From: an uncultured Candidatus Saccharibacteria bacterium
Lineage (GTDB): Bacteria > Patescibacteriota > Minisyncoccia > RBG-13-40-8-A > JAUWHN01
Direction of reading: 5' to 3'
DNA length: 35,655 bases
Assembly (NCBI GenBank): GCA_964426965.1
Contig: CAYRSI010000002.1
Location: 1-35,655 of the forward strand
This document shows, piece by piece, positions 22,310-24,448 of the stretch. Every line of letters starts with the position of its first letter. Position 1 is the first letter of the stretch. The notes beneath the pieces are model-generated. The model had not been told where the DNA came from. It saw nothing but the letters and a program-made list of their open reading frames with translations, and ran no database searches. The position numbers and the translations under genes are program-made.

Positions 22310-24448
22310 TTATTTTCTCACCTCCCAACCCCTCCTTTTGCTCGCTTCTCTAATAATCTTATTATGGATTTTATCTACTTCTTTATCAGTTAAGGTTCTA
22401 TCATCGGCTTGATAAACAATATGAAAAGCTAAATTCTTTTTATTTCTCGGAATTTCTCCTCCTTCATACATATCAAATAAATCAACGCCTTGAATCAAGT
22501 CGCCCCCAACACTATTTATCGCATTTAAAACATCGGCTACTCTATCTCCCAAATTCACCAAAATAGCAATATCTCTAACTACGGCCGGATATTTCGAAGG
22601 ATGCTGATAAATCAATTCTTCGCTGATTAGCTTAATTAAAAGCTCAAAATCAATATTAAATACTGCTACCTGGCCTCCTGCCCCGCCGGTTTTTGCAGAA
22701 TTTATCCCAAATTTAGACAAAATCTCTGGATTTATCTCACCAACAAACCCTATTTCTTTACTACTTATTTTTATTTCAGCGCTTCGGCCAGGATGCCAGA
22801 ATATTTTATTGGTCCATTCTGGCGTTGCTTGAAAATCATCGTACCATTGATTAGTTATCCCTAATTTATTTAATAACCCATCGACCATCCCCTTAACCTC
22901 ATAAAACAGCTCTTCTCTGCCCTCTTTCCGCCCCACTATTCCTACCAACATCATTCTTTCTTTGACTGTCGACTTTAAGTATATTTTTCCTATCTCAAAT
23001 AATCGTACCTCGGAAAAGTATTTAAAATTCTCTCTAATATTCTTTAACAAATTAGTAATTAAATCTCGACGAAGGTATTTCAAATCTAAACTTAGGGGAT
23101 TTTCTAATTCTATATAATCCTTTGAGCTTAGTTTAAGTTTTTCCAAGTCATCATCTCCAACAAAAGAATAATTATAGACTTCAGTCATCCCTAAACCATC
23201 TAGAATATCCTTAGCTTTATTTTTTGATCTTAATAAATCATCTGGCTTAGCTAAAACAAGAGTTCCCATGGGTGGCTTTGGCGTAATTTTCTCATAACCA
23301 TAAATTCGACCAATTTCTTCTATCAAATCCTCGGAAATTTCTATATCAAGTCGGCGAGTTGGCACATCAGCAAACAATTGATCGCCTGCTTTTTTAACAT
23401 TAAATCCTAAAGAACTTAAAATTCTAATAATTTCTTTCTCGGGAATCTCTACCCCTAAAACACTCCTTACTTTATCTATCTTCGAAGAGATTTTACAAGG
23501 CTTTATTTTATTAGGATAGATATCAATCATTCCCTTGGTTATCTTTCCGCCACTGTTTTTTTGAATTATCTCCGCCAATCTGTCTATTGCTTCAGAGGCT
23601 AAATTAGGATCCAATCCGTGCTCAAACCGCAAAGAGGATTCCGTAGATATTCCTAATTTCCGAGAACTAGCATGAATGTTATTGAGATTAAAATTAGCTG
23701 ATTCTAAAATAATAGTTTTAGTGTTTTTATCTATTTCTGCTTTAAGTCCTCCCTTTATTCCAGCAATAGCAATTGGATCCTTGCTGTCAGCAATTACCAA
23801 GATATCATTATCTAACTCACACTCTTCGCCGTCTAAAGTAGTAATTTTCTCGCCCTTTTTCGCCCTTCTTATTATTATTTGTTTCTTATTCGCAATTCGT
23901 TTAGATTCGTAATTCGTAGGAACCAACTTGTTGGCATCAAAGGCATGTAATGGCTGCCCCATTTCAAGGGCTACATAATTTGTCGCATCAACTATGTTAT
24001 TTATTGGTTTCTGGCCAACTGCCCTTAATCGTTTTTGCATCCACTGGGAGGAAGGACCAACTTTTATATCAGTTATTACTCGAGCAGTATATCTGGGACA
24101 CAGCTCGGCATCTTTCACCTCCACACCTACAAAATCTTCAACTTTTAACTTTTTGTCTTCAGTTACTTTGGACTTTGCCTGCCTGCCCGCTTCGCAGCGA
24201 GGCGAGCCGGCAAGGCAGGGACTTTGGAATTTGGAATTTAGAAGCGCGGCGCACTCTCTAGCCACTCCGATATGACTCAAACAATCGTGAGCTCGATTAG
24301 GTAAAACATCGATATCTAATACATGGTCATTGCCGACCCTTTCTATCCACTCCACCTCAAAACTATGCATGGTCAACAAATCAGCCAATTTTTCTGGTTT
24401 TGGTAAATTTTCAACGTATTCCTTTAACCAATTATAGGAAATTAACAT
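22310..24448 (-). CDS. pheT: Phenylalanyl-tRNA synthetase beta subunit (no N-terminal OB/tRNA-binding domain; carries two repeat-derived inserts)
   Basis: [12 protein letters not shown]...[18 protein letters not shown]...CPRYTARVI...[15 protein letters not shown]... Start taken at 24448. The track start at 24475 lies inside the spacer repeat. Confidence 0.93.
23888..23921. repeat. AT-rich 'attcgNaattcg-n5-attcgtaattcgtagga' module inside the pheT CDS
   Basis: Sense strand CCTACGAATTACGAATCTAAACGAATTGCGAAT compares with spacer copy CCTACGAATTACGAATCAAACACGAATTACGAAT (24488-24522). It encodes [11 protein letters not shown]. Confidence 0.85.
24170..24226. repeat. GC-rich nested palindrome (core 24178-24218) flanked by the direct repeat GGACTTTG, inside the pheT CDS
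   Basis: ggactttg-CCTGCCTGCCCGCTTCGCAGCGAGGCGAGCCGGCAAGGCAG-ggactttg. Confidence 0.88.

Follow-up and report, generated by a model that had tools for sequence, protein, structure and literature searches.

How does an essential bacterial gene come to carry, within its reading frame, a piece of DNA that otherwise lies between genes? This question is raised by pheT, which encodes the β subunit of phenylalanyl-tRNA synthetase (PheRS), in a 35,655-nucleotide (nt) stretch of contig CAYRSI010000002.1 (hereafter the window), deposited as an uncultured Candidatus Saccharibacteria bacterium. The window organism belongs, within the Patescibacteria (candidate phyla radiation, CPR), to the Portnoybacteria type; Patescibacteria genomes are tiny and tightly packed, and their non-coding DNA is little known. 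An earlier note on the window had described an AT-rich repeat module in pheT resembling a repeat in the spacer between pheS and pheT. Here we describe the family of TACGAAT-box repeats exposed by this comparison. The pheT segment is probably one arm of such a small intergenic element, which entered the reading frame where a loop could accommodate it and was passed between alleles by recombination.

Results

A 33-nt repeat arm within the pheT reading frame

The pheT coding sequence (positions 22310–24448, minus strand; 712 amino acids (aa), delimited by Pfam domains and alignment of orthologue starts) contains a 33-nt insert that runs from 23920 to 23888 on the minus strand and reads CCTACGAATTACGAATCTAAACGAATTGCGAAT. 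On the coding strand it is laid out as CCTACGAATTACGAAT-CTAA-ACGAATTGCGAAT. The outer box (23905–23920) consists of CC and two TACGAAT heptamers, while the inner box (23888–23900) differs by one substitution, A to G, from the form ACGAATTACGAAT found in the wider family; the linker CTAA at 23901–23904 joins the two. The insert amounts to one arm whose complementary partner is missing from the vicinity, and this lone arm has no fold of its own (z = −0.17). It is read as PheT residues 177–187, in the context (V)...(KK). The in-frame translation given in the earlier note was the correct one, and the gene is intact, with all four PheT Pfam domains (B3_4, B5, tRNA_synthFbeta and FDX-ACB). That note had placed the module at 23888–23921 and its spacer counterpart at 24488–24522; the sites are right, and each interval is 1 nt too long at one end. 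We rejected an assembly artefact as the source of the insert, as the identical 721-aa database product was obtained from two independent samples and the sequence recurs in several independent assemblies.

In an alignment of 28 PheT proteins, the segment (V/A)PTNYESKRI(A/T)N is found only in the window protein and in P0002, and the other 26 read KL-x-G-KK-IIVRR. The 11 residues are accordingly missing from 26 of the 27 close orthologues. They are also missing from the solved PheRS β chains 2RHQ, 2RHS, 7N8Y, 3PCO and 1B70 (phmmer E-values of 7e-98 to 1e-89), where the HMMER gap falls exactly on the insert. Both comparisons bear out the proposal that a repeat-derived segment lies in frame where orthologues are shorter, with the correction that the extra length is 11 aa (33 nt) rather than about 12 residues.

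The insert lies within the B3/B4 editing domain (B3_4, PF03483), in which the conserved HAFD strand is kept. A full-length AlphaFold model built with 28 sequences was unusable (pLDDT 59), and our structural reading rests on a model of the B3/B4 domain alone, built with 97 sequences (pLDDT 92, pTM 0.88). This model superimposes on PheRS structures from S. haemolyticus, T. thermophilus, E. coli and others with TM scores of 0.84–0.88 and root mean square deviations of 1.2–1.7 Å (Foldseek). Residues 177–187 are modeled as coil between the LHAFD and KQIIIRR strands (residues 68–72 and 90–96 in domain numbering), and it is only in this block that the confidence drops, to a pLDDT of 69. The suggestion that the segment might be a surface loop of the B3/B4 domain thus agrees with the model, in which the insert is predicted to form a coil loop between two strands.

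The same loop has taken up other sequences. Among 97 PheT relatives it is 8 aa long in 68 and longer in 28, such that a repeat-extended loop beside the editing-site strand is found in ~29% of Portnoybacteria-type PheT proteins. One relative (L276) carries a 63-nt (AAATCCC)n array at this position and another (L277) carries two TCCCGAC/GTCGGGA hairpins. Further loops contain peptides with a seven-residue period (KSKIKNQ...), which, judging from the peptides, would be heptamer arrays read through three frames.

The spacer element and its likeness to the insert

The spacer between pheS (24526–25554, minus strand; stop codon TAA at 24528–24526) and pheT is 77 nt long in the window and 4 nt long in an insert-free relative, L013. 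It holds an imperfect palindrome of 68 nt (24454–24521, minus strand). The 5′ arm (24488–24521), CCTACGAATTACGAATCAAACACGAATTACGAAT, begins with CCT and is composed of two boxes and a linker, CCTACGAATTACGAAT-CAAAC-ACGAATTACGAAT; it is followed directly by its imperfect reverse complement (24454–24487), ATTCGTAATTCG-ATGAA-ATTCGTAATTCG-CGAGG. As the earlier note had it, the pheT and spacer copies differ by two substitutions and a 1-nt indel, and a global alignment gives 31 matches. The likeness does not reflect a common low-complexity k-mer. The hexamer ACGAAT/ATTCGT occurs 15 times in the window, nine of them in the two sites, compared to ~22 expected from base composition, and all six window matches to the 13-mer ACGAATTACGAAT with at most one mismatch lie at the pheT insert and the spacer, compared to 0.04 matches predicted for the window from shuffled sequences. 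In the ~42 kb available for the window's genome, box dimers are confined to these two places.

The two spacer arms are predicted to form a hairpin (24453–24522; −31.7 kcal/mol, z = −6.7). At its base, UCCU (24522–24519) pairs with AGGA (24456–24453) and covers the core of the Shine-Dalgarno sequence 5 nt upstream of the pheT start codon. This start is the ATG at 24448, which is preceded by GAGGAAG; orthologues all begin MK[IV]SYNWLKEY at the homologous position, and it is the end of the 3′ arm that provides the GAGGA Shine-Dalgarno sequence. By contrast, the mechanical open reading frame (ORF) and the database gene call (P0001, 721 aa) both place the start at 24475, and the residues gained in this way, MKFVIREEE, are a translation of the 3′ repeat arm. 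Gene callers can therefore translate repeat arms, and the called pheT start serves as a warning for annotation.

A scan of the pheS–pheT spacer for promoters and terminators found none on the coding strand. Two candidates were examined and rejected: for a −10 promoter element within ATTCGTAATTCGTAGG the invariant final T is missing, and a Zur box, for which the half-site TCGTAAT is present, has repeats that are direct and wrongly spaced. In other lineages the interval differs. L012, L276 and L277 have an ORF of 120–125 aa with no Pfam match where the window has the palindrome, and L278 and L279, like L013, have almost no spacer.

TACGAAT boxes across the Patescibacteria

The exact outer box CCTACGAATTACGAAT was found at at least 119 genomic loci. 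Of the first 80 matches listed, 49 are from named Patescibacteria lineages, with Paceibacterota, Saccharibacteria, Falkowbacteria, Uhrbacteria, Moranbacteria and Nealsonbacteria among those represented. By our own arithmetic a random 16-mer should match a few hundred times in 596 Gb, and the matches L166, L194, L225 and L249 are of that kind. However, 114 of 132 arms have further boxes at most 45 nt away, and most matches are therefore not due to chance. The common layout is CCTACGAATTACGAAT, a linker of 3–6 nt, TACGAAT-N-TACGAAT, a variable centre and inverted boxes ending in ATTCGTAATTCGTAGG. Family members usually lie in short intergenic spacers, as single arms or as inverted pairs able to form long hairpins. 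Seven two-armed copies could be parsed strictly: four of them have complementary linkers, and three, like the window, do not.

Arms may tend to lie near gene starts. For 27% of arms, compared to 6% of random positions, an ATG-initiated ORF of at least 80 aa begins no more than 20 nt from the GTAGG end, with a modal distance of 3 nt; under looser criteria the contrast is weaker (35% versus 21%). Because the Shine-Dalgarno sequence is paired in the window hairpin and arms lie close to start codons, these elements may influence translation or mRNA processing. An RNase III is encoded in the window (5242–6003), which makes processing of such long stems plausible.

Coding copies are not limited to pheT. 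A MiaB/RimO-like enzyme (L201, L145) and a MurD-like ligase (L245) also contain TACGAAT modules, translated in the PTNYE frame. Outside this group, Nostoc, Chitinophaga, Acidobacteria and Chloroflexi have pure (ACGAATT)n arrays. The box is all but missing from viral contigs, with one match in IMG/VR. In Rfam no family scored above threshold, the only hits being sub-threshold matches to miRNA-precursor hairpins; in the literature searched, the motif string was not found, nor anything linking Patescibacteria with the terms REP, MITE or RPE. Judged by sequence, the box family is conserved across the Patescibacteria radiation and is recorded neither in Rfam nor in that literature, and both the pheT insert and the spacer copy belong to it.

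The insert recurs at the same codon in separate pheT lineages

Codon and reading frame of the insert are shared by the window and L012, by L136, by L278 (protein P0106) and by L279 (P0100), that is, by at least four separate lineages. L012 is the contig that encodes P0002; its PheT is 78% identical to that of the window and its insert differs by one base. The PheT of L136 is a distant one and retains the B2 domain. The insert is missing from the closest relatives of P0100 and P0106, and L013 (P0003) has neither insert nor spacer element.

The five inserts are pairwise identical at 30–32 of 33 positions, including 10–11 of 11 third codon positions, whereas the remainder of those pheT genes is 53–66% identical in nucleotides and 38–46% at third positions. 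The outer box is the same in all five. The five substitutions among the inserts are all non-synonymous (0/5 synonymous) and are concentrated in the linker, at a density ~8 times that in the boxes. This pattern fits recent repeated acquisition and, as far as the sequences can tell, would fit constraint at the nucleotide level equally well. The full 33-mer of the L012 insert also occurs in intergenic elements on other metagenome contigs from Patescibacteria (L253, L258/L271/L272, L259 and L262).

The flanks indicate more than one history. In L278 and L279 the nine codons adjoining the insert are at background identity. In L136, by contrast, the nine codons 5′ of the insert match those of the window or L012 at 26 of 27 nt and at 8–9 of 9 third positions, while elsewhere these genes are 53–56% identical. 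The shared patch has sharp edges and spans ~60 nt, and from the sequences at hand it would be best explained by exchange between lineages. The window pheT is itself a mosaic, with codons ~150–375 82–97% identical to L012 (96–97% around the insert) and the rest closer to L013. The window organism (L280/L283) and the P0002-type organism (L012) are both represented in JGI sample 3300008516, and the latter is a likely donor of the B3/B4 segment. The insert can serve as a natural marker for recombination among divergent CPR populations that live side by side.

In the four other insert-bearing lineages the pheS–pheT spacer lacks the repeat; in L012 the interval holds a 124-aa ORF and no box. The earlier note had reasoned that a segment kept in relatives without the spacer repeat would speak against a repeat origin. 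L012, L136, L278 and L279 are literally such relatives. Because they keep the insert, the spacer copy need not be its source; the repeat origin of the insert is not overturned.

Discussion

Our preferred reading is that a single arm of an intergenic TACGAAT element landed in frame in pheT and has since been passed between alleles. It builds on the identity of the insert to the intergenic family, its status as an insertion, its location in a loop, its recurrence in pheT lineages and the mosaicism of the gene. The arm would have merely lengthened the B3/B4 loop between the HAFD and IIIRR strands by 11 hydrophilic residues, a change that should be tolerated and may well be neutral for the enzyme. 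It would have been acquired by pheT genes on several occasions, or have passed from one pheT gene to another. In the window lineage it most likely arrived within the recombined B3/B4 segment, from a P0002-like relative in the same sample, and the spacer copy would be another family member or a local derivative of the pheT copy instead of its source. Transposition, templated repair or illegitimate recombination could each have been the means of insertion.

Several observations weigh against this reading. No target-site duplication was seen at the pheT junctions of the window, L012, L136, L278 or L279, or at the spacer element when compared with the empty L013 site, and neither the pheT nor the spacer junctions have the terminal inverted repeats of a classical MITE (miniature inverted-repeat transposable element). 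No transposase is encoded in the ~42 kb of the window's genome. Different loci share boxes and usually not linkers or loops, unlike a young transposing family. The use of the same codon and frame amid unrelated flanks in L278 and L279 is hard to obtain by random insertion and selection alone. The intact boxes of the five inserts, with every substitution non-synonymous, would also fit a function at the nucleotide level. Finally, exposure of the insert within the whole (αβ)2 enzyme is extrapolated from the domain model, the full-length model being poor.

A bolder version of events is also conceivable. The TACGAAT box might be a tiny coding-compatible element, or a recombination or uptake signal, read by a factor conserved in Patescibacteria; it would colonize genomes actively, would have entered the same pheT codon at least three or four times independently, and would move either through insertion with a site preference or through gene conversion, in patches, between alleles that are very divergent. 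We put this forward tentatively and regard it as doubtful. If true, it would be a 33-nt counterpart of homing without a gene of its own. Apart from this version, the observation as a whole gains interest from a box family that spans the phylum, from an essential gene hit repeatedly at one codon and from the evidence that divergent alleles exchanged short patches.

Alternatively, the boxes could be a functional intragenic site kept by selection on DNA or RNA, as a binding site for the factor that would also read the intergenic boxes or through long-range pairing with the Shine-Dalgarno arm of the spacer. The invariant outer box, the crowding of substitutions in the linker, the lack of synonymous ones among them all and the near-identity of third positions over a 38–46% background would all be expected of such a site, and the sense strand of the window insert is indeed complementary to the spacer 3′ arm. 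However, most orthologues do without the insert, unrelated repeats fill the same loop in other lineages, the spacer partner is missing in four of the five lineages, and the insert is oriented opposite to the arms that adjoin start codons. Recency by itself accounts for the identity. We consider such a function unlikely.

Another alternative is that the insert was copied locally, from the spacer element 570 nt upstream or in the reverse direction, through an intra-operon event of template switching or ectopic repair. These two sites are the only ones with box dimers in the ~42 kb, and both have the CCT prefix and resemble each other in the linker (C-TAAA versus C-AAACA), when linkers elsewhere vary widely. 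Yet the spacer element is itself a lineage-specific gain, given the 4-nt spacer of L013, and because L012, L136, L278 and L279 have the insert without a spacer element, copying from spacer to pheT cannot be its origin. Copying from pheT to spacer is possible in the window lineage, and would also require a second, non-identical arm. Overall, local copying strikes us as an improbable source.

Least of all do we favor a native loop extension or slippage within pheT with a chance likeness to the spacer, which is most improbable: heptamer arrays do expand in place, as with (CAAGTTA)4 in L012 and a (CAAAGTC) array in L013 at the N-terminal variable site of the gene, but the L012 insert is identical at 33 of 33 positions to intergenic modules in unrelated contigs, CCT prefix and two-box layout included, the box count far exceeds the shuffled expectation (6 versus 0.04), and the insert is sharply bounded and missing from the nearest relatives.

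With an arm of an intergenic element inserted into pheT as the preferred reading, the closest parallels are the Rickettsia palindromic elements (RPEs), which together with intragenic MITEs (ERIC, QMITE and Nezha-type) have been reviewed (PMC10969869). Like RPEs, the TACGAAT element is a small non-coding repeat that is mainly intergenic, also occurs in frame within unrelated housekeeping genes, adds a peptide where the fold allows it and is present or absent between orthologues. In contrast, RPEs are ~100–150 bp long, are inserted whole and carry a CGTC tag, while the pheT insert is a 33-nt half-element of heptamer pairs that differs from the RPE families in sequence, length and tag. It also has no visible terminal inverted repeat or target-site duplication. 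Moreover, the TACGAAT box is kept across a phylum-level radiation, not within one genus, and occupies the same codon in several lineages.

Repetitive extragenic palindromic (REP) sequences and REPINs are GTAG-tagged palindromes mobilized by RAYT transposases (PMC3733652). The resemblance lies in palindromic intergenic repeats that end in ...GTAG(G) and occur singly or as inverted dimers; REPs also turn up now and then within genes, even at roughly matching sites in different species (recB, Xanthomonas). However, REP stems are 5–13 bp long and usually GC-rich, with GTAG unpaired at one end, whereas the TACGAAT arms are AT-rich. We rejected membership among the REPs on two grounds: the arms are ~34 nt long, and GTAGG pairs with CCTAC in two-armed copies. 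No RAYT gene was found among the proteins of the window, over the ~42 kb of genome. The insert behaves like RPEs and intragenic REPs and is a member of neither; it resembles the RPEs in kind, in a family and a phylum that are both new.

Heptanucleotide tandem repeats are a further relative, and include the cyanobacterial short tandemly repeated repetitive sequences (STRRs), long simple sequence repeats (Mrazek 2007) and TAACTGA upstream of Beggiatoaceae starts (PMC4679880). The TACGAAT elements share with them the 7-nt unit, its head-to-tail arrangement (the TACGAAT dimers in each box), the intergenic setting and, perhaps, a position a few nt from a start codon. The pure (ACGAATT)n arrays of other phyla link the unit itself to this known class. 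They are set apart by heptamers that form linker-separated dimers in two-box arms or inverted pairs with a fixed CC...GG end. To our knowledge, no in-frame coding copies of STRRs have been described.

DNA uptake sequences and uptake signal sequences, as in Neisseria and Pasteurellaceae, are likewise short taxon-wide motifs, commonly paired in inverted orientation in intergenic DNA, tolerated within coding sequence where site and frame permit, and spread by recombination along with flanking DNA. Their density is ~1 per kb, and the two TACGAAT loci in ~42 kb are far too few by that measure.

The TACGAAT family, like other small repeats, has altered surface loops in essential enzymes time and again, and pheT provides a concrete case of selfish or regulatory repeats creating protein indels.

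Other repeats and features of PheT and the window

A second in-frame insert in pheT (24152–24247, minus strand) consists of a GC-rich hairpin, CCCTGCCTTGCC...GGCAGGCAGG (−29.8 kcal/mol), with heptamers (AAATTCC and CAAAGTC) on its flanks. The hairpin is specific to the window in the alignment, and orthologues have other heptamer arrays at this site, those of L012 and L013 among them. The earlier note counted two repeat-derived inserts in this essential gene and called them unrelated. There are indeed two, but they are not cleanly separate in kind, as in L138 and L205 the TACGAAT elements enclose CCTGCC...GGCAGG hairpins. L136, on its reverse strand, likewise has a GC-rich hairpin insert, KARPPGLRPGEVGRG, at the 3′ end of pheS in the zinc-knuckle region of PheS, and repeat-derived inserts thus affect the α subunit too.

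Three features concern the wider PheT protein. The window lineage lacks the B2 tRNA-binding domain, with query residue 40 aligning to residue 156 of the solved chains. Some relatives (P0015–P0017, P0021, P0022, P0028 and others; 798–860 aa) have an NlpC/P60 domain (PF00877) within PheT. A third extra segment, at 22670–22700 (minus strand), is shared by the window protein with P0005 and P0006 and is missing from most orthologues and from the solved structures.

Many other heptamer arrays occur in the spacers of the window. Two hairpin-forming elements of ~170 nt (7820–7990 and 26814–26961) are 83–87% alike and contain the heptamers CAAATAA, AAATTCT and TTTGTGA; one of them lies in the nusG–rplK spacer and ends just before the rplK start. 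An (ACAATTA)4.6 array at 6788–6819 and a (TGTTAAT) array at 15242–15287 are 97% complementary at a distance of 8.4 kb, and each adjoins a gene start, that of rpmF and that of a DUF5667/Kazal gene. Five copies of ACAAAACTACAGA form a perfect 13-nt tandem repeat (9254–9319) in the interval that separates tmk from a gene encoding a PaaX/Cas2-like domain. Lastly, positions 11858–13933 hold a single ORF in which a MiaB-type radical-SAM methylthiotransferase is fused to MiaA (isopentenyl pyrophosphate (IPP) transferase).

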